Of a DNA stretch of 64,000 bases, positions 12,609 to 47,262 are shown one piece after another. Origin of the DNA: Trueperaceae bacterium (GTDB taxonomy: Bacteria > Deinococcota > Deinococci > Deinococcales > Trueperaceae). Under the pieces are notes generated by a model. It saw nothing but the letters and a program-made list of their open reading frames with translations, had not been told where the DNA came from and made no database searches. Each line of letters opens with the position of its first letter. Within the stretch, counting starts at the first letter, position 1. Location of the stretch: contig OZ243927.1 in NCBI GenBank assembly GCA_965213925.1, forward strand, positions 2,144,001-2,208,000. The letters are read 5' to 3'. The translations under genes and the position numbers were made by a program.

Positions 12609-12611
12609 ATC

Positions 12612-21603: not shown

Positions 21604-21729
21604 GTTAAAAGCAACCCAGTCATACCCGCTTGCGCAGCTAGCGGGAGCGGTCCACGCGACGCACAGGGCTGGGCGAACGGCGAGCAATGAGTCCAACCTT
21701 TTCACTTTTAACTCGTTGCTCATTGCTCA
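21596..21729 (+). repeat. Repeat family C copy
   Basis: AGCAATGAGTTAAAAGCAACCCAGTC...GAGCAATGAGT...ACTCGTTGCTCATTGCTCA between convergent genes. Confidence 0.75.
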
Positions 21730-22719
21730 AAAACTGAGGTTATGTTTAGCTCGGTAGTCCTCGAGCAACCTATCCACGACTTTAGCGGTACGTAAAGCGC
21801 TCTCGCCGGTGCTCGAGCACTCTCCTTGACCCGTCAAGGCGTCCACGACCTCCTGAATGAGTGGCTGCTGCACCGTCTCGGGATAGGGTGCCTCGATGAC
21901 CTCTTCGCCGTCACCCGTCGTGAGATGGAGCGGGCTGCCGTCGAACGAGGCGAAGCGCAAGCTTCCTTTTGAACCGATCAAGTTGACCGAATCGACCTCT
22001 TGCGTGCCGCTAAAACACCACACACCCATACCCTGAACGCCCGACTCGAATTCGAACGCGGCGCTCACGATATCCTCGGCGGGGTAGCGCCCTGCTTGGT
22101 TAGCGGCGAAACCTGTGACTTTAGCAATGGGTCCGAGCATCCAGTCCAGAAAGTCTAAGGTGTGTGAGCCCATGTCCACGAAGTAGCCGCCGCCGGAGAC
22201 TTCGGGGCGTACGCGCCAGGGAATGTCGCCTACGTCCGAGGGAGACGCGGAGAGTTGCAGCCGCACCTCAACCGCCCTCACTTCACCAATCGTTCCCGAA
22301 TCCAACATCTCTTTGATTTTGACGAAGCGCGGCATCGCCCGCCGGTAGTAGGCGACGAAGAGGGGTACGCCCGCATCCTTACACGCCGCAATCATCGCCT
22401 CGCACTCTTCCGCTGTACGCGCCACCGGCTTCTCGACGTAGACGGGTTTACCCGCCGCCGCAACTTGTAGTGTGTAGTCGTGGTGTGAGTCGGGCGGGGT
22501 GGCGATGTAGACGGCGTCCACGTCAGGGTCATGGATAAGTTTGTCGGCATCGTCGTACCACTTAGGGACGCCGTGACGCTCGGCGTAGTCCTTTACTTTA
22601 TCTGTAGAACGCCGCATGACGGCGACGAGTTCTGAACGCTCCGCTTGCTGAAAGCCGGGTCCGCTCTTTTTTTCCGTCACGTCGCCTACTCCGATAATGC
22701 CCCAACGCACCTTATCCAT
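21727..22719 (-). CDS. Gfo/Idh/MocA oxidoreductase
   Basis: WGIIGVGDV, YIATPP, EKP, GGGYFVDMGSH. Confidence 0.9.
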   Translation of the reverse strand: MDKVRWGIIGVGDVTEKKSGPGFQQAERSELVAVMRRSTDKVKDYAERHGVPKWYDDADKLIHDPDVDAVYIATPPDSHHDYTLQVAAAGKPVYVEKPVARTAEECEAMIAACKDAGVPLFVAYYRRAMPRFVKIKEMLDSGTIGEVRAVEVRLQLSASPSDVGDIPWRVRPEVSGGGYFVDMGSHTLDFLDWMLGPIAKVTGFAANQAGRYPAEDIVSAAFEFESGVQGMGVWCFSGTQEVDSVNLIGSKGSLRFASFDGSPLHLTTGDGEEVIEAPYPETVQQPLIQEVVDALTGQGECSSTGESALRTAKVVDRLLEDYRAKHNLSF

Positions 22720-22773
22720 AAGTCGCTCCTTTGTAGAGGTTAAAGTAGCATATGTTCGCAAGGTGGCAAAGGA

Positions 22774-22788
22774 TTTCGCATGGTGAAT
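22774..22788. promoter_or_regulatory. Putative IclR operator overlapping the iclR start
   Basis: TTTCGCATGGTGAAT, nearly identical to TTTCACATGGTGGAA at 23894-23908. Confidence 0.55.
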
Positions 22789-23562
22789 AGAACTCAGGCT
22801 GAGGAGGCGTCACCTCGAGCCGGTGGGATGTTAGGTAAGGGTCTAAACCTCCTGACCCTTTTAGGCAACTATCCAGACGGCGTCGCCCTGAGCGACCTCG
22901 CGGCGGAAGCGGGCTTGCCGACCTCGACGGCGTACCGGCTCCTCGGTGCGATGGTCGCGCACAAGTTCGTGACGTTTGACCCCGCGACGCGCTGCTATCA
23001 GTTGGGGCTCAAAGTCTTCGAGTTAGGGCATCAGGTCTCTTCGGTCAAAAGTCTGGTTGAAATCGCGACGCCCGCCATGCAGCGGCTCGCCGACGTGACG
23101 CACGAGCTGATTTCGCTCGCAGTTTTGGAGCATCACGAGATGGTCATCTTGAAGCGCATCGAGCCCAAAGAGCGGCTGCACATTAAAGCGTACGTGGAAG
23201 GGCGCTTCGCGCTGCACACGACCTCTTTAGGAAAGTCGCTCCTAGCGTACATGCTCGAGAACGAACGCGAAAAGGTCCTTCAAAACCTCACCCTCACCCG
23301 GATGACCGAGCGCACGATGACCGATTTGGGCGCGTTGCGCGAGGAGCTTAGGCGCACCAGAGAGCGCGGTTACGGCATCTGCGACGAGGAGAACGACGTG
23401 GGCATCCGGGCGGTGGGCGCGCCGATTTTGAACGCCCAAGGGCGGGTGCAAGCGGCGCTCTCAGTCGCGACCTTGACCTTTCGGCGCTCGCTCTCAGACT
23501 TAGAGCAGTTCGTGCCTGACGTGCAGGCGGCGGCGCGTGAGGTCGGGGTGCAGCTTCATTAG
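22780..23562 (+). CDS. IclR family regulator
   Basis: LPTSTAYRLL HTH, LHTTSLGK, ERGYGICDEE, AVGAPI. Confidence 0.93.
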   Translation: MVNRTQAEEASPRAGGMLGKGLNLLTLLGNYPDGVALSDLAAEAGLPTSTAYRLLGAMVAHKFVTFDPATRCYQLGLKVFELGHQVSSVKSLVEIATPAMQRLADVTHELISLAVLEHHEMVILKRIEPKERLHIKAYVEGRFALHTTSLGKSLLAYMLENEREKVLQNLTLTRMTERTMTDLGALREELRRTRERGYGICDEENDVGIRAVGAPILNAQGRVQAALSVATLTFRRSLSDLEQFVPDVQAAAREVGVQLH

Positions 23563-23754
23563 GCTCGAGGGGGGGCGTTTTTTTCTCGAGTGGCGTGCAA
23601 CATATATCCTCAGCATGATTCTTTCGCTACCTGCGGTTCGCTGACCCCTTTTGCTATCCAAACCACAGTTTATCTCACCCGAGATACTGCCCCGCCACCT
23701 TGAAAAAGTCGCAAGAAGTCATATCGTTTCAATAGGGTAGAGGGAGTGCGCGGC

Positions 23755-23807
23755 GTAGGGGCACATAATTTATTACTGTATGAATCGTCCCTACTGCATT
23801 TGCCTCC
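23755..23807. repeat. Degenerate GTAG-type REP copy
   Basis: GTAGGGGC...ATGAATCGTCCCTACTGCATTTGC shares its ends and 3' tail with 44721-44760. Confidence 0.6.
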
Positions 23808-23841
23808 TTCTGTGACTTTTTCAGTGAGGTCCACCAATACC

Positions 23842-23908
23842 TTGACGCCGCCTCGAGAGATACGCTACACTCGACCTACATCATAAAAAGAGTTTTCACA
23901 TGGTGGAA
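23842..23908 (+). promoter_or_regulatory. Sigma70-like promoter and downstream IclR-like operator for the TRAP operon
   Basis: TTGACG (23842) - 18 nt - TACACT (23866); TTTCACATGGTGGAA at 23894-23908. Confidence 0.55.
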
Positions 23909-23982
23909 AAAGTGCTGGAAGCCACCAGGCGAAAACGGCTGGCGGGTCGCACGCGGCGGCGCTGGCATTTCAGGAGGTAGGT

Positions 23983-24960
23983 ATGAAGCGGATCGTCGGT
24001 ATCGTCTCTGTCCTGTTACTGAGCACGCTGAGTATGACCTTTGCGCAGGAGTACACGCTCCTCGCCGGGCATCAGCTCGCTGCTGGCACGCCTTTCGACC
24101 AAGGGCTTATCCGCTTCGCCGAACTCGTGGAGGAGAAAACGGACGGGCAGGTCACTGTGGAGGTCAATTCAGGCGGAGCCATCGGCAGCGAGTTGGAGAT
24201 GTTTGAAGGGATGACGGTCGGCACCGTGGACGTGGCCGTGGTCGCGCCGAACTCCATCGCCGAGTTCGTCCCCGAAGCGACGATTCTCTCCATGCCCTTT
24301 TTAGTCGACAGCCGCGAGATGCGCGACCAGGTCATCGAGAGCGAAGCATTCCAACAAGTTGCCGACCTCATTCAAGAGCAGACCGGCGTCGAGGTCTTGG
24401 GCGTCTTCGGCGGCGGCATCCGCAACATGTTCTTCACCGAGTCGGTGGAGAGCGTGGAGGGAATGCAGGGACGGCGCTTCCGCGTGCAGCCGAGCAACAT
24501 CTTGACGGATTCTTTTAGCGCGGTCGGCTTAGAGCCCACCGTCGTCGCCTACTCCGAGCTTTACAACGCGCTCGCGCAAGGCGTCGTGTCGGGCGCGGAA
24601 AACGAGTCGGTGTACGTCTTGTCGCAAGCCTTTTACGAGCCCGCGCCCTACTTGCTTCAGACGCAGCACGAAGTCACCATTCGCCCCCTCGTCATCAGTG
24701 GCATGACACTGGACCGGCTGCCGCCCGAACTCGCGGACGCGGTGCGTGAGGCGGGCGCGGAGGCGTCGGCGTATGCCAGAGAGGTCGAAGCAGAAGCCGA
24801 TGACGCCGCCTTACAAGAACTCCAAGAGGAGCACGGTATGACGGTCTATGAGATCGACACCGCGCCGCTTATCGAAGAGGTGCAGCCCATCTGGAGCGAG
24901 TACGCCGAGCAGTGGGGGCTCACGGACGTGTTAGAGCAGATCACCGCGCTGCGCCAGTAG
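23983..24960 (+). CDS. dctP: TRAP transporter substrate-binding protein
   Basis: Signal peptide, GRRFRVQ, ELYNALAQGVVSGAEN. Confidence 0.92.
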   Translation: MKRIVGIVSVLLLSTLSMTFAQEYTLLAGHQLAAGTPFDQGLIRFAELVEEKTDGQVTVEVNSGGAIGSELEMFEGMTVGTVDVAVVAPNSIAEFVPEATILSMPFLVDSREMRDQVIESEAFQQVADLIQEQTGVEVLGVFGGGIRNMFFTESVESVEGMQGRRFRVQPSNILTDSFSAVGLEPTVVAYSELYNALAQGVVSGAENESVYVLSQAFYEPAPYLLQTQHEVTIRPLVISGMTLDRLPPELADAVREAGAEASAYAREVEAEADDAALQELQEEHGMTVYEIDTAPLIEEVQPIWSEYAEQWGLTDVLEQITALRQ

Positions 24961-24963
24961 CCC

Positions 24964-25509
24964 GTGAAGCGCCCCCTTGACCTTTTACAAACCGCGCTGG
25001 CTGGTCTCATGACCAGCCTCCTTTTGCTGTTTACGGTGGTGGTTTCCTACCAGGTCCTCGCCCGCTACGTCGGCTTCGTGCCCCGCGCGCTCTGGACCGA
25101 AGAGGTCGCCCGCTACGCCTTTATCTGGATGCTCTTTGTGGGCTCGGCGATTGCGGTGCGCACGCTTTCGCACTTCACCATTGACCTCTTGCCGAACCTG
25201 AGCCCACGTGCGAACAAAATTGTCAACGTCATCGTCGCCTTGCTCATGCTCGCGGTTGCGCTCCTTATTCTTTTTGGCGGCGTCCGCTTTTCGCAAATTG
25301 GCATGAACCGCGTCTCGACCTCTTCGGGAATCCGGCTAGGCTACGTGTACATGGCGCTGCCGGTGTCGGGGGCGGCGATGGTAGTGTTTTTGCTCGAGCG
25401 CCTCGTCAACGTAGTCCAGGGTAAAGAGCTAGAGAACAACCCCGACGCGGTGAGTGAAACGGACGTCAAGCAAACTCCTGAGTCCCAGAAGAACGAAGGT
25501 GAACCGTGA
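24964..25509 (+). CDS. dctQ: TRAP small permease
   Basis: QVLARY, WTEEVARY, HFTID. Confidence 0.9.
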   Translation: MKRPLDLLQTALAGLMTSLLLLFTVVVSYQVLARYVGFVPRALWTEEVARYAFIWMLFVGSAIAVRTLSHFTIDLLPNLSPRANKIVNVIVALLMLAVALLILFGGVRFSQIGMNRVSTSSGIRLGYVYMALPVSGAAMVVFLLERLVNVVQGKELENNPDAVSETDVKQTPESQKNEGEP

Positions 25510-26777
25510 CCGAAGCGCTCGTCCTGCTCGTGAGCTTCCTCGCGCTCATCACCTTGCGCGTGCCTATCGCCTTTGCCCTGCTGCTGTCGGGCTCCCTCTT
25601 CTTCTTCTTCGAAGACCGCTTGGTTCCCTGGACCATCACCCAGCGCATGTTCTCAGGTGTGGACTCCTTCGTCATCTTGGCCGTGCCTCTTTTCATCCTC
25701 ACAGCCAACATCATGAACGAGGCGCAGGTGACGAGCCGCCTCATCCGCTTGACGATGGCGTTGGTCGGCGTGATTCGCGGCGGCTTGGGCATGGTCAACG
25801 TGGCGACGAGCATGATCTTCGCGGGCGTGTCGGGCTCTTCGACGGCGGACACGGCGGCGGTAGGCTCGGTGCTCATCCCGCAGATGACCAAGCGCGGCTA
25901 CGACAAGGAGTTCTCCGTCGCGGTGACGGCGTCATCGTCCGTCATTGGGACGATCATCCCGCCGTCCATTCAGATGATCTTTTGGGGCGCGCTCACCAAC
26001 ACCTCTATCGGCGCGATGTTTTTGGGTGGAATGATTCCGGGGCTGCTCATCGGTGGGGGGATGCTCGCGGTGGTTTACGTGACGGCGGTGCGCCAAGACT
26101 ACCCCACCGAAGACCGCATCGCGCTGAGCGAGGTTCGCGCTGCTTTCTGGGATTCGCTACTCGCTTTGGGCGTGCCCGTCGTCGTGATTGGCGGTATCAT
26201 CCTGGGTATTGTGACCGCGACGGAGGCGGCGGTGCTCTCGGTGCTTTACGCGCTCGCTTTAGGTTTATTCGTCTACCGCTCGATAGGCTGGCGCGACCTG
26301 CCGCGCATCTTCCGCGAAAGCGCCAACCTCTCGTGCTTGCCGCTTTTCGCGCTCGCGGCTGCCTCGGTCTTCAGCTTTCTCCTTGCGTACTACCGCATTC
26401 CGCGACTTTTAGGCGGCGCGTTGGAGGGCGTGCCCCTCGTCTTGCTGCTGCCCGCCATCGTCTTAGTCTGGCTCCTCATCGGCACGTTTTTAGACGCGCT
26501 GCCTGCGATGGTCATCATGATTCCGGTGCTCGCGCCGCTCGTGACCTCGGCGGGACTCGACCCGGTGCAGTACGGCGTGATCTCGGTGATGGCGCTGGCG
26601 TCGGGGCTGATTACGCCGCCCTACGGTTTGTGTCTACTGCTGTCCGCCTCGATTGCCGACATCCCGATGGCGCAGGCGATACGGGGATTATGGCCCTTCT
26701 TCTTGGTTATCATGAGCGTCATCGTGCTCTGTATGCTCTTTCCTCCCATCGTGACGTGGCTGCCTGGGCTAATGTGA
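25506..26777 (+). CDS. dctM: TRAP large permease
   Basis: LAVPLFIL, GVSGSSTAD, IIPPSI, TPPYG. Confidence 0.93.
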   Translation: MTEALVLLVSFLALITLRVPIAFALLLSGSLFFFFEDRLVPWTITQRMFSGVDSFVILAVPLFILTANIMNEAQVTSRLIRLTMALVGVIRGGLGMVNVATSMIFAGVSGSSTADTAAVGSVLIPQMTKRGYDKEFSVAVTASSSVIGTIIPPSIQMIFWGALTNTSIGAMFLGGMIPGLLIGGGMLAVVYVTAVRQDYPTEDRIALSEVRAAFWDSLLALGVPVVVIGGIILGIVTATEAAVLSVLYALALGLFVYRSIGWRDLPRIFRESANLSCLPLFALAAASVFSFLLAYYRIPRLLGGALEGVPLVLLLPAIVLVWLLIGTFLDALPAMVIMIPVLAPLVTSAGLDPVQYGVISVMALASGLITPPYGLCLLLSASIADIPMAQAIRGLWPFFLVIMSVIVLCMLFPPIVTWLPGLM

Positions 26778-26812
26778 GGGCAGTAACGAGCATGAAAGTG
26801 AGAGAAAAGGAA

Positions 26813-26868
26813 AAAGGACTGAGGACTGAGGTTAAAGTCTTTTCTTTCCTCTCAGTCCTCAGTCCTTT
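26813..26868. repeat. Perfect 18-bp heptamer-based inverted repeat
   Basis: AAAGGACTGAGGACTGAG / CTCAGTCCTCAGTCCTTT with loop GTTAAAGTCTTTT. Confidence 0.85.
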
Positions 26869-26914
26869 GCACTTTTAGCTTATTTTTGCTTTCCCAGAAC
26901 GGCACGGTGCAACA

Positions 26915-28510
26915 TTGCGAAATATAAATAAACTCGTTGACGTAGCGGAAGTGGTAGCGCGGATTCCCGACGGGGCGACGCTGTCGGTGAGTGCCTCGAG
27001 CGCCTTGGGCTGCCCTGACAAGGTCTTGGAAGCGGTTGGCGCACGCTTCCGCGAAACGGGGCATCCGAAAGAGGTCACGAGCCTCCACCCCATCGCTGCG
27101 GGCGACATGTACGGCGTCCCTGGTATCGACCACTTAGCCCAAGACGGACTCTTGAAGCGCGTCATCGCCGGGTCCTATCCGAGCGGGCCGTCGTCTACGC
27201 CCTCGCCCGCAATTTGGCGCATGATTTTAGAGAACCGCGTCGAAGCGTATAATCTGCCGAGCGGCGTCCTCTACCACATGCACGGCGAGGCGGCGGCGGG
27301 GCGTCCGGGCGTGCTGACGAAAGTCGGGCTAGAGACGTTTGTAGACCCCTGCTTAGAGGGTGGGCGTATGAACGCCTGCACGACTGAAGATATTGTGGAG
27401 AGGCTCGAGTTCAAAAACGACACCCACCTCTTCTATCCAGCCATCCCGGTAGACGTCGCCATCATCCGAGCAACGACCGCCGACGAAGCGGGCAACCTGA
27501 CGGTGGAGCACGAGGGTGCGCCGTTGGGGGTTCTCGAGCAGGCGTTAGCGGCGAAGGCGAACGGCGGCACCGTCGTCGCACAGGTGAAACGGGTGGCGGC
27601 GGCGGGAACCCTGAACGCTCAAGACGTGCGCGTCCCCGGTGCACTCGTGGACTTCATCGTCGTAGACCCCGACCAGCGCCAAACGACGGAGACGGACTAC
27701 GAGCCCGCCATCAGTGGAGAGGTCAAGCGACCTCTTTCTTCGTTCGAGTTACCTGAGTGGAGTATAGAAAAGGTCATCGCCCGCCGCGCTGCTATGGAGT
27801 TACAGCGCGGCGACATCGTCAACTTAGGCTTCGGCATCTCGGCGCTGGTGCCGTATATTTTGCTAGAAGAAGGACTTCACGGCGCAGTCACCTGGGCGAT
27901 CGAGCAGGGCGCGGTGGGTGGCTTGCCGCTCCGTGACTTTCAGTTCGGCTGCGCCAGCAACGCCGACGCGCTCGTCCCGTCGCCCTTACAGTTCAACCTC
28001 TTTCAAGGGGGCGGCTTTCAGCGTGCCATGCTTTCTTTTATGCAAGTCGATAGGGAGGGCAACGTCAACGTCTCCAAGCTGAGCGCCAAGCCCCACGTCA
28101 CAGCGGGCGTCGGCGGCTTCATCGACATCACGCACAAGTGTCCGCACCTCGTCTTCAGTGGCACGTTCGCGGCGGGTGGCTTGAAAACGGAGTGTCGAGA
28201 CGGCGAACTGCGTATCGTACAAGAGGGCAAAGCGAAGAAGTTCGTCCCACAAGTCGAGCAGGTGACGCTGAGCGGTAAGCAAACTCAGTTAAAGGGGCAG
28301 CGCGTCACCTACGTGACCGAAAGGTGCGTGCTCGAGCTAACCCCCACCGGACTCGTAGTCACCGAAGTTGCCCCTGGAATCGACTTACAAAAAGATATTC
28401 TCAACCAAGCTGAAATCTCACTCGAGGTCAGTCCGAACATTAAAGAGATGGACGCTACACTTTTTCGTCAAGAGGTCTTAGGGGATGTTCTTACGAGGCG
28501 TTTGGGATGA
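26915..28510 (+). CDS. Family I acyl-CoA:acetate/3-ketoacid CoA-transferase (YdiF/Pct-like, fused)
   Basis: LTKVGLETFVDP, RATTADEAGN, VNLGFGI, EQG catalytic Glu, GNVNVSK, GGFIDI, YVTERCV. Confidence 0.88.
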   Translation: MRNINKLVDVAEVVARIPDGATLSVSASSALGCPDKVLEAVGARFRETGHPKEVTSLHPIAAGDMYGVPGIDHLAQDGLLKRVIAGSYPSGPSSTPSPAIWRMILENRVEAYNLPSGVLYHMHGEAAAGRPGVLTKVGLETFVDPCLEGGRMNACTTEDIVERLEFKNDTHLFYPAIPVDVAIIRATTADEAGNLTVEHEGAPLGVLEQALAAKANGGTVVAQVKRVAAAGTLNAQDVRVPGALVDFIVVDPDQRQTTETDYEPAISGEVKRPLSSFELPEWSIEKVIARRAAMELQRGDIVNLGFGISALVPYILLEEGLHGAVTWAIEQGAVGGLPLRDFQFGCASNADALVPSPLQFNLFQGGGFQRAMLSFMQVDREGNVNVSKLSAKPHVTAGVGGFIDITHKCPHLVFSGTFAAGGLKTECRDGELRIVQEGKAKKFVPQVEQVTLSGKQTQLKGQRVTYVTERCVLELTPTGLVVTEVAPGIDLQKDILNQAEISLEVSPNIKEMDATLFRQEVLGDVLTRRLG

Positions 28511-29265
28511 CCTTGATTAGGCTCAAGCTTGGGCAAGTCGCCACCCTCACGCTGAACCGTCCCGACAAACTCAACGCCCTCACGGCGGAGATGTTAGACG
28601 AATTAGAGGCGCACCTCTTCGAATTGGAGCGTGACCAAGAGGTGCGCGCCCTGCTGCTCAAAGCGGAAGGACGAGCGTTTTGCGTCGGGGCGGACATCCA
28701 CGCCTGGATGAGTCTGGAGCCTTTAGAGATGTGGCGCGTTTGGACGCGGCGCGGACATGAGGTCTTTAGAAGGCTGGCGACGTTGCCGCAACCCGTCATC
28801 ACCGTCATTCAGGGCTATGCGTTCGGGGGCGGGCTCGAGCTTGCCCTAGCTGCTGACGTGCGTCTCGCTTCAGAAAGTGCGGCATTTGCGATGCCTGAAA
28901 CCGGCTTGGCGACGCTGCCCGGTTGGGGCGGGACGGAGCGGTTGCCTCAGCTTATCGGCGTGGCGCGGGCGAAGCAGATGATCTTCTCGGGTGAGCGGTT
29001 GGGTGCGGATAGGGCGGCGCAGTGGGGCTTGGTCAATGAGGTGCTGCCTGAAGCGGACCTTTCGGTTAGGGCCGATGAACTTGCACAGCGAATCGCGAAC
29101 AACGCACCTCTCGCGGTGCAGATGGCGAAGCAGATTCTTAACGGTGAGGCAGGCGGACCGCTGACCGAGGCGTTGGCAGGCGGCTTGAGTGCGTTTACGC
29201 AAGATGCCAAAGAAGGGCTCGACGCTTTCGCTGAAAAACGCCCGCCGAAATTCGAAGGGATATAG
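28507..29265 (+). CDS. Enoyl-CoA hydratase (crotonase)
   Basis: LNRPDKLNAL, FCVGAD, GGGLE and MPE (both catalytic Glu). Confidence 0.9.
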   Translation: MTLIRLKLGQVATLTLNRPDKLNALTAEMLDELEAHLFELERDQEVRALLLKAEGRAFCVGADIHAWMSLEPLEMWRVWTRRGHEVFRRLATLPQPVITVIQGYAFGGGLELALAADVRLASESAAFAMPETGLATLPGWGGTERLPQLIGVARAKQMIFSGERLGADRAAQWGLVNEVLPEADLSVRADELAQRIANNAPLAVQMAKQILNGEAGGPLTEALAGGLSAFTQDAKEGLDAFAEKRPPKFEGI

Positions 29266-30378
29266 ATGATAGAGGCTCGAGCTTTACAAGAGCGTGCGGA
29301 GGAGGGGTTGGGGTTCGCCGCAAAGCAACTCCGCACCCTCATTACGAACCACCCCGACTTCTTCCCGCTCTACACCGAAAATGGCGAATGGAAGCATGGC
29401 AAAGAAGCCTGGACGCGCTGGTGCGACGGATTTTTAGCAGGGATGCTCTGGATTGCGGCGCGGCGTAGCGGTGACAAGTGGTGGCGCGAGCGGGCAGAGC
29501 GCTACTCGTTGCTGTTAGAAGACAGACAATATGACCGCGACGTACACGACTTAGGTTTCGTCTTCTGGTCGAGTTGGAAAAGGTGGCTGGACCAGACCGA
29601 AGATGAAAGGGAGCGCGAGCGAATCGACGCCGTTATCATCCAAGCGGGCAAGACGATGGGCTTGCGCTTCAACGAAAAGGGGAAGTTCCTGCGCTCGTTT
29701 GTCGCGCCGGAAAGCTGCTTTATCGACATCATGATGAACGTCGGGATCATCTTCTACGCGGCGCAGAGAGGTGGGGACGAGACACTTTATGATAGAGCGC
29801 TCTCGCACTGCCTCGCCACCCGTCGCTACCTTGTGAGAGGCGACGGAAGCACCGCGCATGAAGGGATTTTCGACCTAGATACGGGCGAGTTCTTGCGCCA
29901 ATCCACCCATCAGGGTTGGCGCGGTGATTCGTCGTGGGCGCGGGGCCAGGCGTGGGCGCTCTACGGGTTCGGCACGGCGTACACCTACACCCAAGACGAA
30001 CGCCTTTTAGATACCGCCAAACGCTGCGCCGACTTCTTCATCTCGCGCACGCCCGAGCACGGCGTCCCGCCGAACGACTGGGAGGAGCCTGACCCCGCGC
30101 AACCTTTTGAGAGTTCCGCTGCGGCAATCGCCTCGAGCGGCTTGTTGCAACTCGCTGAATTAACTGGAGAGACCCGCTACCGAGAGGCGGCATTACGTAC
30201 TTTAGACACCCTCCTCACCCCTGAATTCCTCGCCGTCGACACGCCCGGCTGGGAAGGTATCTTAAAACACGGCTCGTACCACGAGCGCAAAAGCTTGGGC
30301 GTGGACGAGAGCGTGATGTGGGGCGAGTATTTCTTCGTGGAGGCGTTGGATAAGCTGACGCAAGAGGTCGAGAGGTGA
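29266..30378 (+). CDS. GH88 unsaturated glucuronyl hydrolase (no signal peptide)
   Basis: WCDGFLAG, HDLGF, IDIMMN, RGDGSTAH, WARGQAWALYGF, SSAAAI, WGEYFF. Confidence 0.9.
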   Translation: MIEARALQERAEEGLGFAAKQLRTLITNHPDFFPLYTENGEWKHGKEAWTRWCDGFLAGMLWIAARRSGDKWWRERAERYSLLLEDRQYDRDVHDLGFVFWSSWKRWLDQTEDERERERIDAVIIQAGKTMGLRFNEKGKFLRSFVAPESCFIDIMMNVGIIFYAAQRGGDETLYDRALSHCLATRRYLVRGDGSTAHEGIFDLDTGEFLRQSTHQGWRGDSSWARGQAWALYGFGTAYTYTQDERLLDTAKRCADFFISRTPEHGVPPNDWEEPDPAQPFESSAAAIASSGLLQLAELTGETRYREAALRTLDTLLTPEFLAVDTPGWEGILKHGSYHERKSLGVDESVMWGEYFFVEALDKLTQEVER

Positions 30379-30974
30379 TGTCAGAGGTATTTTCAAGGCT
30401 CGAGCAAGCCAAAATCGTCGGCGTGTTACGAGCTGATGCGGGAGCGCAAGACCAGGCGGAAGCGGCGCTGAAGGCAGGATTAGAGGTGTTGGAAGTCACG
30501 TTCTCCACGCCCAATGCAACCGACCTCATTCAGCGTCTGCGTGCCAATTATCCCGAGAAACTCATCGGTGCGGGGACGGTGCGAACCTTTGAGCAGTTAG
30601 AGCAGGCTGCTAGTGCGGGAGGGCAGTTTGCGGTGAGTCCGCATTTGGAGCCAAAGTTGATCGAACATGCTGCTACGCTTGACTTACCCTACATTCCCGG
30701 CACGTCCACACCCACCGAAATCGCAAGAGCTTTATCTCTAGGCTGCACCTTGCTTAAAGTTTTCCCCGTCCGTCCGCTAGGCGGCGTCGATTACCTGAGC
30801 AGCTTGCTCGGTCCCTACCCTGAACTCGAGCTGATGGTGACGGGCGGCGTCAAAGCGGAAGAGGTCGGTGCGTACCTGCGCGCGGGCGCTAAGGCGGTTG
30901 GGCTAGGGTCACTTTTCGCCTCTGACGCTGAAGAGACTGAGGCTCGAGTCCGACGCGTACTGGGCGCGCTATGA
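30375..30974 (+). CDS. eda: KDPG/KHG aldolase
   Basis: LEVTF, IGAGTV, VSPH, TPTEI, KVFP, TGGV. Confidence 0.88.
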   Translation: MMSEVFSRLEQAKIVGVLRADAGAQDQAEAALKAGLEVLEVTFSTPNATDLIQRLRANYPEKLIGAGTVRTFEQLEQAASAGGQFAVSPHLEPKLIEHAATLDLPYIPGTSTPTEIARALSLGCTLLKVFPVRPLGGVDYLSSLLGPYPELELMVTGGVKAEEVGAYLRAGAKAVGLGSLFASDAEETEARVRRVLGAL

Positions 30975-31384
30975 ACCTCAGCCGCCACGCTTCGCGCGGC
31001 TGAGGTTGCGCAGGAAAATGGCGTGGTGGTCGCACCCGAACTGCCGCGCGAAGCTGTGGCGGGCGCGGACAGCCTTCGAAAAGTGGACAGGTGCTTGCTC
31101 GAGCGGCGACGCAGACCCTCCTTCCCTTTGTCGATAGTCTTTTACTCAGCGCTCCTGCTGACTTGGAGGCGTTAGAGGGTAGCGCTGACGAACTGGCTGA
31201 ACGTCTACCTCTTGTATGCGTTAAGCGCGGCGAGCAAGGCTACACGGTTTATAAGGGAGGCTCGAGAATCGACTTTCCTCCCACGAGTGCAGACGTTGTC
31301 GGTACAACGGGCGCGGGCGAGCTTGCGAGTCGGGCGGCGGCTGCATCTGTCGCTTATAGAGGTGCAGTGCCCCCTCGAGGCTAA
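30971..31384 (+). pseudogene. Decayed PfkB-family sugar kinase (KdgK-like)
   Basis: Motif fragments in three frames: AATLRAAEVAQENG, PNCRAKLW, VKRGEQG, VGTTGAGE; N-terminal half and the segment after the GAGD motif are missing. Confidence 0.75.
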
Positions 31385-31387: not shown

Positions 31388-32386
31388 TCACATATTCGTA
31401 AACTGGTACGCCTCTTGAATCAGCTCGAGACTTCCCTTCGCCATCTCACCTGTCACCAGCGGGTCGCGCCCCTCGCGGATCGATCCGATAAAGTCCTGAA
31501 CGACGCGCTCATGGTTCGCGGTTGAAGTCTGTTTCGGGTCGGCGGCGCTGCTATCTGCCATGTCGCTCTCAGGTTTCGGTACGCCCGGCACGTCCCAGCG
31601 CACGATGCGCTCTCCCTCAATCCGCAACGAGCCCTCCGTCCCGCAGAGTTCAACTGTATGCGCGACGCCCGGCTTGCTCGCGGTCGTGCCGCAGATGGAG
31701 CCTAAAGCGCCGTTCTGAAACTCGAGCCCCACCACCGCCGTATCCTCGACCTGAATCTCTCGTGCTAACCTCTTGCTAAACGCGGCGACTCGCCCGACCT
31801 CTCCGAACATCCAGAGCGCCAAGTCCACCAGATGAATCCCCTGATTCATGAGTACGCCGCCGCCGTCGAGGTCTTTGGTGCCGCGCCACGCGGCCGAGTC
31901 GTAATAGTCCTGCCCTCGGAAGTAGGGCATGGTGATAGACAGGAGGACGGGACGCCCGAACGCGGCGCTGTCTACCGCGGCTTTGACCTCTTGGAAGAAG
32001 GGGTCGGCGCGGCGCTGAAAGGTGACGCCTAAGCGGAGGTTGTTTTTTCTCGCTAAAGAGGTGAGGTCATCGGCGTGGGTGGGCTTTAAGGTGATCGGCT
32101 TTTCGGTAAGAACGTGTTTGCCCGCTTCTAAAGCCGCTTTTGCCTGCTCGTAATGCTGACCGCTCGGAGTAGCGATGCAGACGGCGTTGAGGTCGGGTTC
32201 TTTGAGAAACCGCTCCAAGTCATTGGAACAGGGGACGCCCCAGGCTTCTTCTACGGCCTGAGTATCTCCATCCGAACTGCGCAGCGCCGCTACAAGTTCC
32301 GCCCCCTCCAAACGCCGCAAGATATCCGCGTACCACCCGCCTGCCGTTCCTACGCCGATAACGCCAAAACCCAGCGGTTTAGCCAT
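31388..32386 (-). CDS. Gfo/Idh/MocA oxidoreductase
   Basis: GVIGVG, IATPSGQH, EKP, WRGT..DGGGVLMNQGIH. Confidence 0.9.
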   Translation of the reverse strand: MAKPLGFGVIGVGTAGGWYADILRRLEGAELVAALRSSDGDTQAVEEAWGVPCSNDLERFLKEPDLNAVCIATPSGQHYEQAKAALEAGKHVLTEKPITLKPTHADDLTSLARKNNLRLGVTFQRRADPFFQEVKAAVDSAAFGRPVLLSITMPYFRGQDYYDSAAWRGTKDLDGGGVLMNQGIHLVDLALWMFGEVGRVAAFSKRLAREIQVEDTAVVGLEFQNGALGSICGTTASKPGVAHTVELCGTEGSLRIEGERIVRWDVPGVPKPESDMADSSAADPKQTSTANHERVVQDFIGSIREGRDPLVTGEMAKGSLELIQEAYQFTNM

Positions 32387-34297
32387 CTAATTCGCCCCGA
32401 AGAGGCTCGGCAACACGTTCACGAACCAGGGGAAGTAGGTGACGAGCAGAAGCACCACGAGCATCACCGGCCAGAGGTAGAGCATCGCCCTACTCGCCTC
32501 CTCGATGCGGATATTGCCGATCGCGCAGCCCACAAAGAGCGCCGTACCGACGGGCGGCGTGGTCAGCCCTAAACCTAAGTTCATCAAGAGAACGATGCCG
32601 AAATGCACCGCGCTCATGTTGATGGGGTCGGCGGTGACGATGGGCAGCAATACGGGCGTGAGGATGAGGATCAAGGGAGCCATGTCCATGATCGCGCCGA
32701 GTAAGAGGAGCAACACGTTGATCATCAGCAGGAGCAAGAGCGGGTTTTGCGTCAGACTTTGCATCCCTTCTGCCAGCGTCCCCGGAATCCGCAAGTACGC
32801 CATGAGCCAGGCAAAGGCGCTCGCCGCCGCGATGAGGAAGATGACGATGGCGATGGTGCGCACCGACTGGCGCGTCGCTTGCCAAAGCTTTGCGGGCGGC
32901 AGTTCGCGGTAGATAAAGGTTCCAACGAGCCACGCCACAACGGTTCCAATCGCCGCCGCCTCGGTCGCGGTGAACCAGCCGAACGCGATGCCGCCGACGA
33001 TGATGAGCCCGACGGCTAAGCCGGGAATGGCGGCGAGTGCGATGCGCAAGCTTTCCTTAGCGGGCGGACGTTCGTCCGTCGGATAACCGCGCCGGAGGGC
33101 TAAGATATAAGACGCCGCCATCAGCCCGAGCCCGATCATGATACCGGGGATGTAGCCGCCTAAAAAGAGCGCCCCGATGGAGACACCCCCCGCCGCCAGC
33201 GAGTAGATCACCGCGTTGTGCGAGGGCGGAATGATGAGCCCCTGCGTCGAACTCGCCACCGTCACGCCGACGCTAAAGTCCGTGTCGTAACCCTTCTTTT
33301 TCATCATCGGGATGAGAATCGAGCCGTTCGCGCTCACGTCCGCCACCGACGAGCCCGACGCGCCGCCGAAGAGCATCGACGAGACGATATTGACCATCGC
33401 CAAGCCGCCGCGAATCGGACCGACTAAAACGCGGGCGAAGTCCACGAGCCGCTGCGCGATGCCCCCTTCCGCCATGATCTGCCCCGCCAGGATGAAAAAG
33501 GGGATGGCCAAGAGTGGAGTCGAGTTGACGCCGTTCGCCATCCTCTGCGCGACGATAAGAGGCGGCAAGCCGAGGTTAAAGGCGGTGAGTAAGCTGGCAA
33601 TCCCTAGCGCGATGGCGATGGGCACGCCGAAAATGAGGAGCAGCGTTAAAGAACCGAGCAGCAAGCCCACCGGACTCGTCAGCGTCTCCCAGCCTAAGAG
33701 CGCCACGCTGCCCACAGAAAAGAGCACGCCGATGGTGACGAGCGCGACCCGCAAGAGGGTATTGCGTTGCGGCGTCACCTCGTCGACTTGATCTTGCACC
33801 TGAAAGGCGTTTCTCAGCGCGTAAAAGGCGATGAGCACCCCGCCAAAGGGGATGCCTAAATACATCCAACCGATGGGGAGCTTCGTCGCGGAAAAGGTCT
33901 GCGACATGGTGCGGCTGCTGAGTTCTGCGCCGTACCAGACGAGATAGACGCCGAAGCCCACGACGAGCGTCCAGACTGCGTAAGTCAGCGCTTTTTGCAC
34001 GCCTCTCGGAAACTGCCGCACCACGACGTCCACCGAGAGGTGCTCGCCTGCGCGAATCGCCAAGCCGCTGCCCAGCATCGAGAGCCAGACCATCAGGATG
34101 AGGCTCGTCTCTTCGGTCCAGCGGGGGATGCGCATTCCGGGGATGTAGCGGGCGACGACTTGCCACACGATAATCAGCACAACACCTAGGAGGAGCGAGG
34201 CGGTGAAGGCGCGTACCACACGGGTGAAGCCACGCTCGAGCCGCCCAAGCAGGGAAGGCCCCTCGCGGGGTCCCTGTGCACTCAGTTCAGATGCCAT
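32387..34297 (-). CDS. Fused TRAP DctQ-DctM permease
   Basis: N-terminal QVVARY/WTEE; C-terminal LAIPFFIL, SGSSVAD, IIPPS, TPPVG. Confidence 0.92.
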   Translation of the reverse strand: MASELSAQGPREGPSLLGRLERGFTRVVRAFTASLLLGVVLIIVWQVVARYIPGMRIPRWTEETSLILMVWLSMLGSGLAIRAGEHLSVDVVVRQFPRGVQKALTYAVWTLVVGFGVYLVWYGAELSSRTMSQTFSATKLPIGWMYLGIPFGGVLIAFYALRNAFQVQDQVDEVTPQRNTLLRVALVTIGVLFSVGSVALLGWETLTSPVGLLLGSLTLLLIFGVPIAIALGIASLLTAFNLGLPPLIVAQRMANGVNSTPLLAIPFFILAGQIMAEGGIAQRLVDFARVLVGPIRGGLAMVNIVSSMLFGGASGSSVADVSANGSILIPMMKKKGYDTDFSVGVTVASSTQGLIIPPSHNAVIYSLAAGGVSIGALFLGGYIPGIMIGLGLMAASYILALRRGYPTDERPPAKESLRIALAAIPGLAVGLIIVGGIAFGWFTATEAAAIGTVVAWLVGTFIYRELPPAKLWQATRQSVRTIAIVIFLIAAASAFAWLMAYLRIPGTLAEGMQSLTQNPLLLLLMINVLLLLLGAIMDMAPLILILTPVLLPIVTADPINMSAVHFGIVLLMNLGLGLTTPPVGTALFVGCAIGNIRIEEASRAMLYLWPVMLVVLLLVTYFPWFVNVLPSLFGAN

Positions 34298-34303
34298 ATG
34301 CTT

Positions 34304-35266
34304 TTACTCGGTATCTAAAATGCGCTGCACCAAGTCGCCGTACTCGCTGCCGTATTGGTCATAAAGGGGCTGCACCGCCTCCTGAAACTCGCTCGTGTCC
34401 ACCTCGATGATCTCGCTGCCCGCCTCGATGACGGCTTGCTTACTTTCGTCGGACAGCTCCGCCCACGCCTCGAACTGCACGCTCACGCTCGCTTGCGCCG
34501 CCTCGCGCACGAGCTGCTGGTCTTCGGGGCTCAGGCTGTTCCAGGTGGACGCGCTGATCATCACCACTTCGGGCACCCGTGCGTGACCGTCCTCGGTGAA
34601 GTGCGGCGCGACCTCGTAGTGGCGCACGCCGTCGGGACCGTACGAGGGGTAGTTGTTCTCCGCGCCGTCGATGACGCCCGTTTGTAAGGAGCTATAGACC
34701 TCACCGAACGCCATCGGCACAGGCTCCGCGCCCAAAAGCTCCATCATGTCCAGCACGACTTGGCTCTGCTGCGTGCGGATGCGCAAGCCCTCCACATCTG
34801 CCACGCTCCGAATGGGCGTCTCGGTGGTGTAGAAGTTGCGGCTGCCCGAGTCGTAGTAGGCGAGCCCGACCAAGTCCGACTCTTCCAAGCCCGCGAGGAG
34901 TTCCTCGCCGATATCTCCTTGAAGCACGTTCACGAAGTGGTCCATGTCTCTGAAGATGTAGGGCAGACTATAAACCCCCATCGGCGTGTAGAATTCGCCC
35001 ACCGGACTCGTCGAAGTGCGCACGATGTCGATGACGCCCAACTGCGTCTGCTCGATGGTGCTGCGCTCGTCACCGAGCTGCCCACCTGCGAAAACTTCCA
35101 TCTGGATGCGTCCGTCCGAGTTTTCGTTGAGATAATCCGCCATCGCGTTTAAGCCGATGACGGTTGGGTAATCCTCGGGTTGGTTGTCGGCGGCGCGGAG
35201 CGTGACCTGGGCGAACGCTGCGCTCCCCAAAAGCAAGACTGCGAGTAAAACGCGGAGCTGAATCAT
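34304..35266 (-). CDS. dctP: TRAP substrate-binding protein (uronate-type)
   Basis: Start MIQLRV with GAGAGGT RBS; DYPTV, GGQLGDE, YDSGSRNFY, LQTGVIDGAENN. Confidence 0.92.
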   Translation of the reverse strand: MIQLRVLLAVLLLGSAAFAQVTLRAADNQPEDYPTVIGLNAMADYLNENSDGRIQMEVFAGGQLGDERSTIEQTQLGVIDIVRTSTSPVGEFYTPMGVYSLPYIFRDMDHFVNVLQGDIGEELLAGLEESDLVGLAYYDSGSRNFYTTETPIRSVADVEGLRIRTQQSQVVLDMMELLGAEPVPMAFGEVYSSLQTGVIDGAENNYPSYGPDGVRHYEVAPHFTEDGHARVPEVVMISASTWNSLSPEDQQLVREAAQASVSVQFEAWAELSDESKQAVIEAGSEIIEVDTSEFQEAVQPLYDQYGSEYGDLVQRILDTE

Positions 35267-35295
35267 GACGACCTCTCGGAGTGCGCCCTTAGATT

Positions 35296-35311
35296 TTCTC
35301 ACGTGTGAGAA
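35296..35311. promoter_or_regulatory. Palindromic putative operator upstream of the second dctP
   Basis: TTCTCAC-GT-GTGAGAA. Confidence 0.45.
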
Positions 35312-35594
35312 GACGCGCCCGTGCCTACTATGCGTGGTTCTACAAGCGACTGCGCCGTGACCCGCCGCGCTACTTCGCACAGCTACGCGCACGATATTCC
35401 GCTCGCACCCGTTCGTACGCGCTGCCACAACACGCAGAAACGCATGAACCTAGTTAGGACTAATTGAAGCCACTATACCAGGTATACTTTTAGAGAAACA
35501 GGTGTGTATAGAGCGGTGCGCTTAGCGGTAAGCGCCGCGAAGAGGTTGACGACAAGGACGCCGCACGGCGTGAGGCTGCCAGATGAGGAGAGAG

Positions 35595-37076
35595 ATGATT
35601 TTCAGTCCGTCAGCGCAAGACCTCGAGTCTCAGCTAAGTCAAGAGGTCTACCAGAACTCGCTCGTTCACAAGGATGGTGCAACGCTCTGCTTGAGTCGAG
35701 ACAACCAGCTTCTCTTAATTGCGCCGCAGGGCGATAGGGGGCTCGAGCCCTTCGGCGGCGATGCCGAACCCTTCACCGCCGACCTCACCCTCAAGCGTTG
35801 TCCTCTAGGTCACGCCAACGCCGCCGCGCTGCGCCGCACCCTCTCTTACCTGCAACCTAGACCTCTCGGACTCAAAACTTCATCAGGCTTTGGAGACCGT
35901 TTTGGTCTGGCAACACCCGGACACGCGCTAGCGTTGCAGCGAGTGAGCGGCGACATTGCACCTATCTTCGCCCAACAGTCCATCCGCGAAATGACGCGCA
36001 CGAAGCGCACGCCGCAAGAGGTGATGACCGACGCCACTTGGGGCGCGTATCAAGCGGGTTGGCGCGGTCAGGTCGGAGCCGATGCCGACCATTTGAAGAC
36101 GCCCGAAGACGTTGATGGCTGCGTGGACGCGGGCTACAGCTTTTTCACCACCGACCCTGGTGATTATGTGGACAGTTCAGCGCATACCGCCTCAGCGGAA
36201 GAGGTCGTGGAGAAAGTCGAGAAGTTACCCTGGGAGAAGCTGGAGACCTCTCGAGCCGACCTCACAACGCGGTTTGAAAAGATGAGGCTCGAGCTAGAGA
36301 CCTTCACCCTCACTTTTGAGAAAGAGGATGTGTTTCGCGCCGCTGCCAAGTACGGCGCAGCCCTCGCTCACGTCGTCACGATGTACCGGCACTTAGCAAG
36401 TAAAGAGGTCCCCTTTGAGCTAGAGGTCTCCGTAGATGAAACCGAAACGCCGACGACGCACGTGGAGCACGCCTTCATCGCCTCGGAGTTAAAGCGCTTA
36501 AACGTCCAGTGGGTCAGCCTCGCGCCGCGCTACGTGGGGAGTTTTGAAAAAGGAATCGACTATATCGGTGACTTGGACGAACTAGAAAAAGATTTACGCG
36601 GACACGCGGAAATCGCTCGCGTCCTAGGACCTTACAAGCTCTCCTTGCACTCTGGCTCGGATAAGTTCAGCGTCTATCCGCTGATTGCCGAAGCGACCGC
36701 CGGTAGGGTGCACCTCAAAACAGCCGGGACGAGCTACTTGGAAGCCCTGCGCGTTATCTCAACTGAGGACGCTGACCTCTTCAAAAGGATTCTCGACCTC
36801 TCGCATGAAAGGTTCCAGACAGACCGCAAGAGTTATCACCTCTCGTGTGACCTCTCTAAAGTGCCGACCTCTTCGCAGATCGAGGATGCGGAATTCCCCC
36901 AGTTACTCGAGCAGGACGACTCGAGGCAAGTGCTGCACGTCACCTACGGTTCGGCGTTGGATACTTTTGGAAAAGAGATACGCGGTGTTCTGAACGCGCA
37001 CGAAGAGAAACATTATGAAACCTTAGCAGCGCACTTCGAGAAGCATCTAACACCTTTTGTAGAGAGGAGCTATTAG
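35595..37076 (+). CDS. uxaE: Tagaturonate/fructuronate epimerase
   Basis: GFGDRFGLATPGH, AQQSIREMTRT, GADADHLKT, EVSVDE, KLSLHSGSDKFS, HLKTAGTSYLEALR. Confidence 0.92.
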   Translation: MIFSPSAQDLESQLSQEVYQNSLVHKDGATLCLSRDNQLLLIAPQGDRGLEPFGGDAEPFTADLTLKRCPLGHANAAALRRTLSYLQPRPLGLKTSSGFGDRFGLATPGHALALQRVSGDIAPIFAQQSIREMTRTKRTPQEVMTDATWGAYQAGWRGQVGADADHLKTPEDVDGCVDAGYSFFTTDPGDYVDSSAHTASAEEVVEKVEKLPWEKLETSRADLTTRFEKMRLELETFTLTFEKEDVFRAAAKYGAALAHVVTMYRHLASKEVPFELEVSVDETETPTTHVEHAFIASELKRLNVQWVSLAPRYVGSFEKGIDYIGDLDELEKDLRGHAEIARVLGPYKLSLHSGSDKFSVYPLIAEATAGRVHLKTAGTSYLEALRVISTEDADLFKRILDLSHERFQTDRKSYHLSCDLSKVPTSSQIEDAEFPQLLEQDDSRQVLHVTYGSALDTFGKEIRGVLNAHEEKHYETLAAHFEKHLTPFVERSY

Positions 37077-47250: not shown

Positions 47251-47262
47251 CTAAATCGTGAT

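Follow-up and report, generated by a model that had tools for sequence, protein, structure and literature searches.

The 64,000-nucleotide stretch of Trueperaceae bacterium contig OZ243927.1 analysed here (positions 2,144,001 to 2,208,000; hereafter the window) carries at 22780–31384 a set of genes that are all co-oriented on the + strand and encode an IclR-family regulator, the three DctPQM components of a transporter of the tripartite ATP-independent periplasmic (TRAP) type, a coenzyme A (CoA)-transferase, a crotonase, a glycoside hydrolase of family GH88, the aldolase Eda, and a PfkB-like remnant. The subject of this study is the CoA-transferase/crotonase pair and its association with GH88, which were approached throughout by comparative genomics. 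The 61 open reading frames (ORFs) of the window were scanned against the Pfam and NCBIfam families, and the key proteins were compared in sequence with PDB entries. The features of the locus are as follows.

22780..23562, + strand: IclR-family regulator (PF01614 at 4e-42, PF09339)
23892..23936, no strand assigned: inverted repeat, possible operator (arms of 15 nt with 87% complementarity; 47 bp upstream of dctP)
23983..24960, + strand: DctP, TRAP solute-binding protein (PF03480 at 2e-63; signal-peptide-like N-terminus)
24964..25509, + strand: DctQ, TRAP small permease (PF04290)
25506..26777, + strand: DctM, TRAP large permease (PF06808; TIGR00786, 383.5 bits against a cut-off of 268)
26813..26868, + strand: hairpin between dctM and the CoA-transferase gene (19-bp perfect stem followed by a U-rich tract)
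26915..28510, + strand: family I single-chain (YdiF/Pct-type) CoA-transferase, 531 aa (PF01144; TTG start)
28507..29265, + strand: crotonase-type enoyl-CoA hydratase/dehydratase, 252 aa (PF00378, 201.7 bits)
29266..30378, + strand: cytoplasmic GH88 unsaturated glucuronyl hydrolase, 370 aa (PF07470; similarity to 1vd5)
30375..30974, + strand: KDPG/KHG aldolase Eda (PF01081; TIGR01182, 191.4 bits against a cut-off of 156)
30974..31008, + strand: GC-rich hairpin immediately following the stop codon of eda, which may mark the operon end (weak, z=−2.06)
31091..31384, + strand: 97-aa ORF, probable kinase remnant (weak PfkB match; PF00294 E=7e-4, TIGR02152 E=8e-4)

An initial annotation of this DNA had described the genes from dctPQM to eda, next to iclR, as one co-oriented and closely packed unit, and the ORF and family scans recovered every gene in that order and orientation. 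Close packing holds for the TRAP genes, which are encoded together (dctP/dctQ, +3 bp; dctQ/dctM, −4 bp), and for the enzyme genes, which overlap or abut (CoA-transferase/crotonase, −4 bp; crotonase/GH88, 0; GH88/eda, −4 bp), but not for the junction between the two groups, where a gap of 137 bp follows dctM. The hairpin contained in this gap (−56.8 kcal/mol; z=−6.3) is equalled in folding by none of 200 shuffled sequences, its motif is found nowhere else within the window, and it may be a partial terminator, an attenuator, or an intercistronic RNA stabiliser. Upstream, the inverted repeat at 23892–23936 is the sole one found within 23500–24000, and is a possible operator; the IclR protein scores under the cut-offs of the PcaR, BhcR, and KdgR family models. 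At the other end, the “decayed kinase” of the initial annotation stands in so far as the 97-aa ORF has a PfkB match, which is confined to profile positions 206–258 of 302, i.e., the C-terminal third. The match is thin, the ORF falls short of a full-length PfkB 2-keto-3-deoxygluconate (KDG) kinase, and no similarity was detected to the full-length PfkB encoded in a related verrucomicrobial cluster (see below). The ORF is probably a kinase remnant, plausible on the profile match.

The CoA-transferase aligns over its full length (residues 9–527) to Escherichia coli YdiF (PDB entry ID, 2ahu; E=2e-106), with Glu330 in the motif IEQG aligned with the Glu of the YdiF motif VETG, and is placed by this alignment in family I of the YdiF type. 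We take this Glu to be the catalytic, thioester-forming residue of family I CoA-transferases. Against the FadX model the protein scores 359.7 bits (E=2.5e-107), far below the cut-off of 750, and is thus not a FadX equivalog; its homologs are named “propionate CoA-transferase” in the source records. The crotonase has its best PDB match in a 3-hydroxypropionyl-CoA dehydratase (5zai; E=4e-64), and carnitinyl-CoA dehydratases (3r0o and 3r9s) are also among its matches (E of about 1e-32 to 1e-35). Its residues Gly107–Gly109, Glu111, and Glu131 align with the 5zai motifs GGGLELA and LPE, as expected for a member of the crotonase family. The two catalytic Glu residues that the initial annotation had seen as kept are thereby identified as Glu111 and Glu131, both of which are invariant in all 77 crotonases compared from the related clusters described below. 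Three invariant Trp residues of the cluster crotonases (Trp67, Trp79, and Trp140) were considered as sugar-stacking residues and set aside as not diagnostic, since 5zai is also aromatic at these positions (Phe, Phe, and Tyr).

The match of the GH88 protein to PF07470 is weak (40.9 bits), yet above the cut-off of 26.6, and the family assignment is strengthened by its alignment over residues 13–366 to the unsaturated glucuronyl hydrolase (UGL) of Bacillus (1vd5; E=1.9e-52) and by its similarity to streptococcal UGLs (4e-42). Asp95 corresponds in the alignment to the residue replaced in entry 2ahf (D88N), and Asp154 is aligned in the motif pair IIDC/FIDI; together with His198, Gln216, Arg226, Trp230, Tyr338, and His339, these residues are invariant in 10 of the 10 cluster GH88 proteins. 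Asp88 and Asp149 form the catalytic pair of the Bacillus enzyme, and the other aligned residues have uronate-binding roles. On this basis the protein is a GH88 family member with an intact active site, and is predicted to hydrate 4,5-unsaturated uronides. A signal peptide is not apparent by eye in its N-terminus (MIEARALQERAEEG...), which agrees with the cytoplasmic location assigned initially, and is likewise not seen in the glucose–methanol–choline (GMC) oxidoreductase fusion protein of related clusters. The best PDB relative of the operon DctP is 4nx1/4ovp (E=1.3e-57), which may be a mannuronate/taluronate binder; the ligands are not named in the accessible part of PMC5812351 or in the other literature searched.

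To place the pair in a wider context, a genome scan with the CoA-transferase was made, giving 563 stretches that encode relatives, and the best 80 of these were retrieved together with as much as 10 kb of flanking DNA to either side (individual loci are designated below by L numbers). Gene presence was scored by tblastn with the proteins of the window and of the clusters, many of the loci ending early, and identities were confirmed by Pfam scans of 107 ORFs from nine GH88-bearing loci and 56 ORFs from seven others. The crotonase gene adjoins the CoA-transferase gene in 78 of the 80 loci; the other two break off immediately behind the CoA-transferase gene. Most loci further contain a conserved GFO oxidoreductase gene immediately upstream (63/80), an aldehyde dehydrogenase (ALDH; 59/80), a GMC flavoprotein (59/80), and a CUT1-type sugar-binding protein (58/80); GH88 was scored in 9/80 and DctP in 0/80. 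LacI regulators and sugar ABC permeases are also present in the scanned clusters. From this gene content, the CoA-transferase/crotonase pair is part of a widespread conserved sugar cluster.

The gene order varies with the phylum, the genes for CoA-transferase, crotonase, and ALDH being contiguous in most loci. In Verrucomicrobiota it runs LacI, GFO, CoA-transferase, GMC fusion, crotonase, ALDH, GH88, and ABC importer, whereas the clusters of Chloroflexota/Thermomicrobiota are smaller and variable; for example, two loci of Thermomicrobiales (L002 and L013) have GFO, CoA-transferase, GMC fusion, crotonase, GH88, and the sugar-binding protein, without ALDH. In Alphaproteobacteria and Rhodothermota the order is GFO, CoA-transferase, crotonase, ALDH, ABC importer, and GMC. 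One alphaproteobacterial locus (L009) has ParA, ParB, and RepC genes (4567–8448) immediately upstream of the GFO, CoA-transferase, crotonase, and ALDH genes, and lies on a repABC-type replicon. Cluster orthologs are 50–67% identical across phyla, and three types of GMC protein that are not orthologous to one another fill the GMC role, which suggests that the step is required. A further oxidoreductase type is associated with the cluster of Stagnihabitans tardus (L026), in which a 700-aa FAD_binding_2 flavoprotein (5918–8020) is encoded between GFO and PfkB/Eda, upstream of the CoA-transferase. The best NCBIfam matches of the cluster GFO, all below cut-off, are D-xylose 1-dehydrogenase (8e-39) and IolG. 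The cluster ALDH scores about 282–293 bits against the methylmalonate-semialdehyde dehydrogenase model (cut-off, 448), and is not of the CoA-acylating MmsA/DddC type. A 425-aa ORF found in some alphaproteobacterial loci between ALDH and the binding protein, the place taken by GH88 in Verrucomicrobia, was considered as a substitute for GH88 and dropped as possibly no gene (best Pfam E of 0.25, zero PDB matches, and a low Atlas recognition value of 953).

The association of the pair with GH88 proposed in the initial annotation recurs among these relatives. When the window is counted with the nine fetched loci, GH88 is present in 10 of the 10 informative loci of Verrucomicrobiota and Chloroflexota/Thermomicrobiota; the rows of Verrucomicrobiota/Thermomicrobiota without it (L003, L004, L012, and L055) all end before the expected GH88 position. 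In a tree of the CoA-transferases (IQ-TREE quick search, LG+G4, with SH-aLRT support only), all 10 GH88-bearing rows fall in one clade of 20 (SH-aLRT, 99), which comprises rows of Verrucomicrobiota, Chloroflexota/Thermomicrobiota, and Rhodothermota/Bacteroidota. The presence of GH88 on the tree requires at least 5–6 changes, mostly from early-ending loci. Moreover, five gene orders keep GH88 with the pair: crotonase–ALDH–GH88–binding protein, crotonase–GH88–binding protein, crotonase–GH88, GH88 divergent from CoA-transferase–crotonase in L008, and TRAP–CoA-transferase–crotonase–GH88–Eda in the window. Both the window and L008 keep only the trio of CoA-transferase, crotonase, and GH88, without GFO, GMC, or ALDH; their CoA-transferase branches are long (0.61 and 0.54, respectively, against a median of 0.11), and their transporters differ. 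These trio-only loci fit a self-contained module acting on an acid substrate. Collectively, the comparisons across genomes support a functional tie of the pair to GH88 and to sugar-acid catabolism, and a link that is not due to chance. Seven kb from the trio, L008, a Phototrophicaceae genome, also encodes a protein of 617 aa in which an RpiB/LacAB-type sugar-phosphate isomerase is fused to a RuBisCO large-chain-like domain (1229–3082). GH88 relatives as such are numerous: of 8000 candidates that were scored, 7001 proteins reach E<=1e-40; many of the 120 relatives listed are about 70–75% identical, and several are named Thermomicrobiales.

The end of the pathway is indicated by the enzymes that have joined the cluster. 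A KDPG-type aldolase adjoins it in the window, in a locus of Verrucomicrobia (L001), and in the Paracoccaceae locus L026; Eda is followed by a full-length PfkB in L001, the order is PfkB, Eda, CoA-transferase in L026, and PfkB is encoded directly upstream in L070. The three Eda proteins are only 35–39% identical to one another, which points to an independent recruitment of Eda in three phyla. Such independent recruitment of Eda/PfkB in turn points to a 2-keto-3-deoxy-hexonate (KDG/KDPG-type) acid as the probable end of the pathway.

The operon is flanked by two oxidoreductase genes; beside it is a second TRAP system, with hexuronate isomerase-route genes beyond.

21727..22761, − strand: GFO/IDH/MocA oxidoreductase GFO_a (PF01408/PF22725), divergent from iclR
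31388..32386, − strand: GFO/IDH/MocA oxidoreductase GFO_b, encoded at the end of the second TRAP operon, which is convergent
32387..35428, − strand: second TRAP system (fused DctQM, 32387–34297; DctP2, 34304–35428)
35583..37076, + strand: UxaE, hexuronate isomerase-route gene
37124..37930, + strand: SDR D-mannonate oxidoreductase (382.7 bits against a cut-off of 281)
37927..39201, + strand: LarA-like putative hexonate epimerase (NCBIfam “putative hexonate epimerase”, 8e-55, below cut-off)
39198..40625, + strand: UxaC, hexuronate isomerase-route gene

GFO_a and GFO_b were examined as orthologs of the cluster GFO and rejected at 24–28% identity (GFO_a, 24–26% to the proteins of L069 and L009; GFO_b, 28% in a partial alignment), against 50–57% among true orthologs. 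GFO_a is nevertheless a candidate reductase for the GH88 product. DctP2 is of the glucuronate/galacturonate type, being most similar to 4x8r (E=2.9e-93) and 4n8y (3e-82), which are described as bound to glucuronate and galacturonate in the part of PMC11668362 that was available. The initial annotation had seen no kduI or kduD in the window, and the scans of the 61 ORFs agree: the KduI family has zero matches, and the only KduD-like SDR (37124–37930) scores 153 against the KduD cut-off of 339 and is the mannonate oxidoreductase, so that a KduI/KduD route is not encoded within the 64 kb. Neither gene was seen among the 107 ORFs scanned from the nine GH88-bearing loci, and polysaccharide lyase families were absent from both ORF sets. 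ALDH, a GMC oxidoreductase, and a UxuA/UxaA dehydratase were also not found in the window. The LarA-like (nickel-pincer) protein, encoded between the D-mannonate oxidoreductase and UxaC and downstream of UxaE, may provide a mannonate-to-gluconate bypass of the dehydratase step. A 146-aa single-domain cupin (21163–21603), encoded downstream of an MqnP-like prenyltransferase, was considered as KdgF and rejected; it is nearer to the N-domain of quercetin 2,3-dioxygenase (2e-13) than to KdgF 5fq0 (4.7e-5), and has no NCBIfam match.

A crotonase encoded beside a CoA-transferase is an arrangement that hydrates or dehydrates a β-hydroxy acid as its thioester. We tentatively favour, as a possibility to which we give appreciable but less than even weight, a role of the pair as a thioester-level dehydratase that makes the 4,5-unsaturated substrate of GH88 from a saturated uronate or uronide, independently of lyases. 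From the gene content, the intact catalytic residues, and the conserved synteny, we infer the substrate and each chemical step as follows. The TRAP system would import a hexuronate or a small uronide of D-gluco or D-manno configuration, and the CoA-transferase would load CoA onto the C6 carboxylate. The resulting uronyl-CoA would formally be a (3S)-3-hydroxy-2-alkoxy-acyl-CoA, with C5 as the α-carbon and the C4-OH or C4-OR as the β-substituent, from which the crotonase would remove H5 and the C4 substituent to give the 4,5-unsaturated uronyl-CoA. After CoA has been handed to the next substrate molecule, GH88 would hydrate the enol ether, open the ring, and free the aglycone if the compound is a glycoside, the product being a 4-deoxy-5-keto-uronate (DKI or DEH). 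A reductase, for which the flanking GFO oxidoreductases are candidates, and a KDG kinase encoded elsewhere would then lead to KDPG for Eda. In the relatives with ABC importers, the GMC flavoprotein and ALDH would form the uronate beforehand by oxidation of a neutral sugar or glycoside; the window would need neither, because its TRAP system imports the acid.

By our own stereochemical reasoning, D-glucuronate and D-mannuronate have an S-configured C4 with H5 syn to O4, and the ring would impose an E-like alkene, a geometry that would match the course taken by crotonases (syn, 3S, trans-2-enoyl); for D-galacturonate, the expectation is 3R and anti. The pair could also act on a saturated terminal uronate, which would be out of reach of lyases because hydroxide is a poor leaving group. 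The dehydration reading fits the trio, the absence of lyases, the occurrence of ALDH and GMC with ABC importers and of neither with the TRAP system of the window (the pattern expected if GMC and ALDH make the acid from a neutral import), and the recruitment of Eda/PfkB. It extends to a broader proposal, somewhat more doubtful than the reading for the window itself, of a lyase-independent, intracellular making of 4,5-unsaturated uronides, in which C6 oxidation by GMC and ALDH, or import of the acid, leads through uronyl-CoA and the crotonase to GH88; the core (GFO, CoA-transferase, crotonase, ALDH, GMC, and ABC importer), which occurs in hundreds of Alphaproteobacteria, Rhodothermota, Verrucomicrobiota, and Chloroflexota, would serve this end.

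Several observations weigh against the dehydration reading. To our knowledge, no sugar-acid CoA thioester has been described. The nearest solved relative of the crotonase, 5zai, uses a C3 substrate, and the CoA-transferase resembles short-chain enzymes (YdiF and FadX). GH88 was found in none of the 6 loci of Rhodothermota/Bacteroidota and none of the 61 of Pseudomonadota that share the core cluster. The binding protein of Rhodothermales is 52% identical to that of a GH88-bearing locus of Verrucomicrobia. In the genomes whose cluster lacks it, GH88 is therefore either an accessory enzyme or encoded at another place. The model does not settle what the cluster GFO does, and an ortholog of this protein is missing from the window. 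An enzyme for the conversion of DKI to KDG was not identified, and the kinase of the window is a remnant. Free glucuronate would take the neighbouring UxaC route, so that the real substrate must be another compound. Finally, because of the stable hairpin in the 137-bp gap, the TRAP and enzyme genes may not be read as a single uninterrupted transcript.

Three other readings of the pair have to be weighed against this one. The initial annotation had let the pair act in the opposite direction, a 4,5-unsaturated uronate being activated as its CoA thioester, turned into the saturated uronate through hydration by the crotonase, and passed to UxaC/UxaE in place of KduI/KduD. Being the microscopic reverse of the dehydration favoured here, it draws on the same synteny; crotonase equilibria usually favour hydration, UxaC and UxaE lie only 5–9 kb away, and kduI and kduD are lacking from the window. 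However, the proposed order fails beside GH88, which consumes the 4,5 double bond: by its established mechanism, the enzyme adds water to the enol ether at C4=C5 and sets free 4-deoxy-5-keto-uronate, a compound without the α,β-unsaturation of the acid, so that no crotonase hydration could follow. The GH88 product is instead an α-keto acid, a pair replacing GH88 would compete with it for the same substrate, and free unsaturated monouronates turn spontaneously into the keto form. The hydration model also leaves unexplained the GMC, ALDH, GFO, and neutral-sugar importers in 58–63 of the 80 relatives, and the recruitment of Eda/PfkB instead of UxaC, no UxaC/UxaE having been found in the 80 fetched loci. 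We consider it very improbable. The recruitment of Eda or PfkB in the window, L001, L026, and L070 would equally suit a CoA-dependent aldonate dehydratase, by which a hexonate (D-mannonate, gluconate, or altronate) activated at C1 would be dehydrated across C2–C3 and, once CoA has been transferred, give KDG for KdgK and Eda, GH88 being there only because its product leads to KDG as well. The window, with UxaC, UxaE, and D-mannonate oxidoreductase but no UxuA/UxaA in its 64 kb, has room for such a step, and the cluster GFO, nearest to aldose/inositol dehydrogenases (below cut-off), could make the aldonate. Yet the GMC and ALDH would be redundant beside an aldose dehydrogenase, the LarA-like protein beside UxaC could bypass UxuA in another way, and GH88 would still require KduI/KduD, which were seen neither in the window nor among the ORFs scanned in the GH88 loci; neither the trio-only loci nor the constancy of GH88 in the informative loci is explained, and we regard this route as quite unlikely.

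The pair may alternatively handle a small acid, such as 3-hydroxypropionate/acrylate, 3-hydroxybutyrate/crotonate, or glycerate, that originates in the aglycone or arises when the GH88 product is cleaved (for example, L-glyceraldehyde to L-glycerate, glyceryl-CoA, and pyruvate), with GH88 serving the same imported compound. This accords with the short-chain substrates of the nearest solved relatives (5zai and YdiF) and with the name “propionate CoA-transferase” of the homologs, while the contiguous CoA-transferase, crotonase, and ALDH genes would suit a sequence from aldehyde through acid and acyl-CoA to enoyl-CoA; a set of GMC, ALDH, CoA-transferase, and crotonase also resembles the AcuN/AcuK/DddA/DddC enzymes of acrylate and 3-hydroxypropionate metabolism. 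The cluster ALDH, however, is not of the CoA-acylating type, and is missing from the window and L008 altogether; the acrylyl-CoA reductase, thiolase, and 3-hydroxyacyl-CoA dehydrogenase families were not seen in the scanned clusters, whose regulators are of the LacI type and whose importers are of the sugar type. A small acid as the substrate is thus unlikely, though less so than an aldonate.

Elsewhere in the window, two gene groups stand apart from the operon. A cell-wall sugar recycling block on the − strand (43018–58784 and 62414–63895) encodes a GH3 (NagZ-like) protein, an Opp-type ABC system, a β-lactamase-fold protein, AnmK, a glucosamine-6-P isomerase-like protein, a MurQ-like SIS protein, a GntR/UTRA regulator, a BadF/BadG-type kinase, a NanE-like epimerase, and an amidohydrolase, and is followed by a sugar ABC system and a DUF4127 protein. 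At 9731–13892, genes for a ThiF-family E1-like protein (9731–10537), a 486-aa WD40/β-propeller protein (10759–12219), and a prokaryotic JAB peptidase (12216–12608) adjoin thymidine phosphorylase, and may form a ubiquitin-like or sulfur-carrier module.

The literature searched gave no description of the cluster or of uronyl-CoA, the available part of PMC9007349 containing nothing relevant, which is in line with the statement in the initial annotation that no such pathway was known to have been described. Whatever the mechanism, a conserved sugar cluster of six genes has emerged from the survey that is undescribed in that literature, and the trio recurring in soil bacteria of two phyla may represent an undescribed CoA-dependent step in sugar-acid breakdown. 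If the dehydration reading is true, carbohydrate catabolism would gain a thioester chemistry not known there, CoA thioesters of sugar acids would be met in metabolism for the first time, and the substrates of GH88 would have a new origin. The question is directly testable because the cluster is carried by cultivable species, including Ruegeria atlantica, Roseibium spp., Shinella daejeonensis, Amaricoccus macauensis, and Stagnihabitans tardus.

Among known systems, the pair is closest in logic to CaiB/CaiD of E. coli carnitine metabolism, in which a CoA-transferase and a crotonase form a thioester-level dehydratase, as do AcuN/AcuK for acrylate/3-hydroxypropionate. In both CaiB/CaiD and the window, the CoA-transferase gene adjoins that of a crotonase with both catalytic Glu residues, and the substrate is (or would be) activated, hydrated or dehydrated, and relieved of CoA, which is passed on. 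The likeness is one of logic only, since CaiB belongs to family III and the transferase of the window to family I of the YdiF type, and the betaines of that system are replaced here by a sugar-acid context (TRAP or sugar ABC importers, GH88, and Eda). With YdiF, FadX of Staphylococcus, and Pct of Clostridium, in contrast, the transferase shares the single-chain family I fold, a full-length alignment, and the catalytic Glu, but it is not a FadX equivalog and stands among carbohydrate genes, not fatty-acid genes. The classical route for unsaturated uronates leads from a polysaccharide lyase through GH88 (UGL) and KduI/KduD or DhuI/DhuD to KdgK and Eda. The window resembles it in the intact GH88 active site and in the Eda gene directly after, followed by the kinase remnant, as the verrucomicrobial L001 does with Eda and a full PfkB; it differs in that neither the window nor the ORFs scanned in the GH88 loci include a lyase, KduI, or KduD, and the CoA-transferase/crotonase pair is found in the operon instead. 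GH88 in genomes is read as a marker of lyase-based polysaccharide use, a reading that would change for a large soil subfamily of GH88 if the pair supplies its substrate.

A further comparison is offered by the 3-keto-glycoside pathways, which use GFO or GMC glycoside 3-dehydrogenases, and by the C-glycoside enzymes CarA/DgpA, which are oxidation–elimination routes of glycoside cleavage. The cluster shares with these routes the cytoplasmic GFO and GMC oxidoreductases, a sugar importer, and the lack of a classical hydrolase for the imported sugar, while BT_2158/BT_2159 family models were matched only far below cut-off. The chemical idea would also be the same, namely the elimination of a neighbouring oxygen after acidification of a C–H bond, but the activation would be provided here by a C6 thioester, and is provided there by a C3 ketone.

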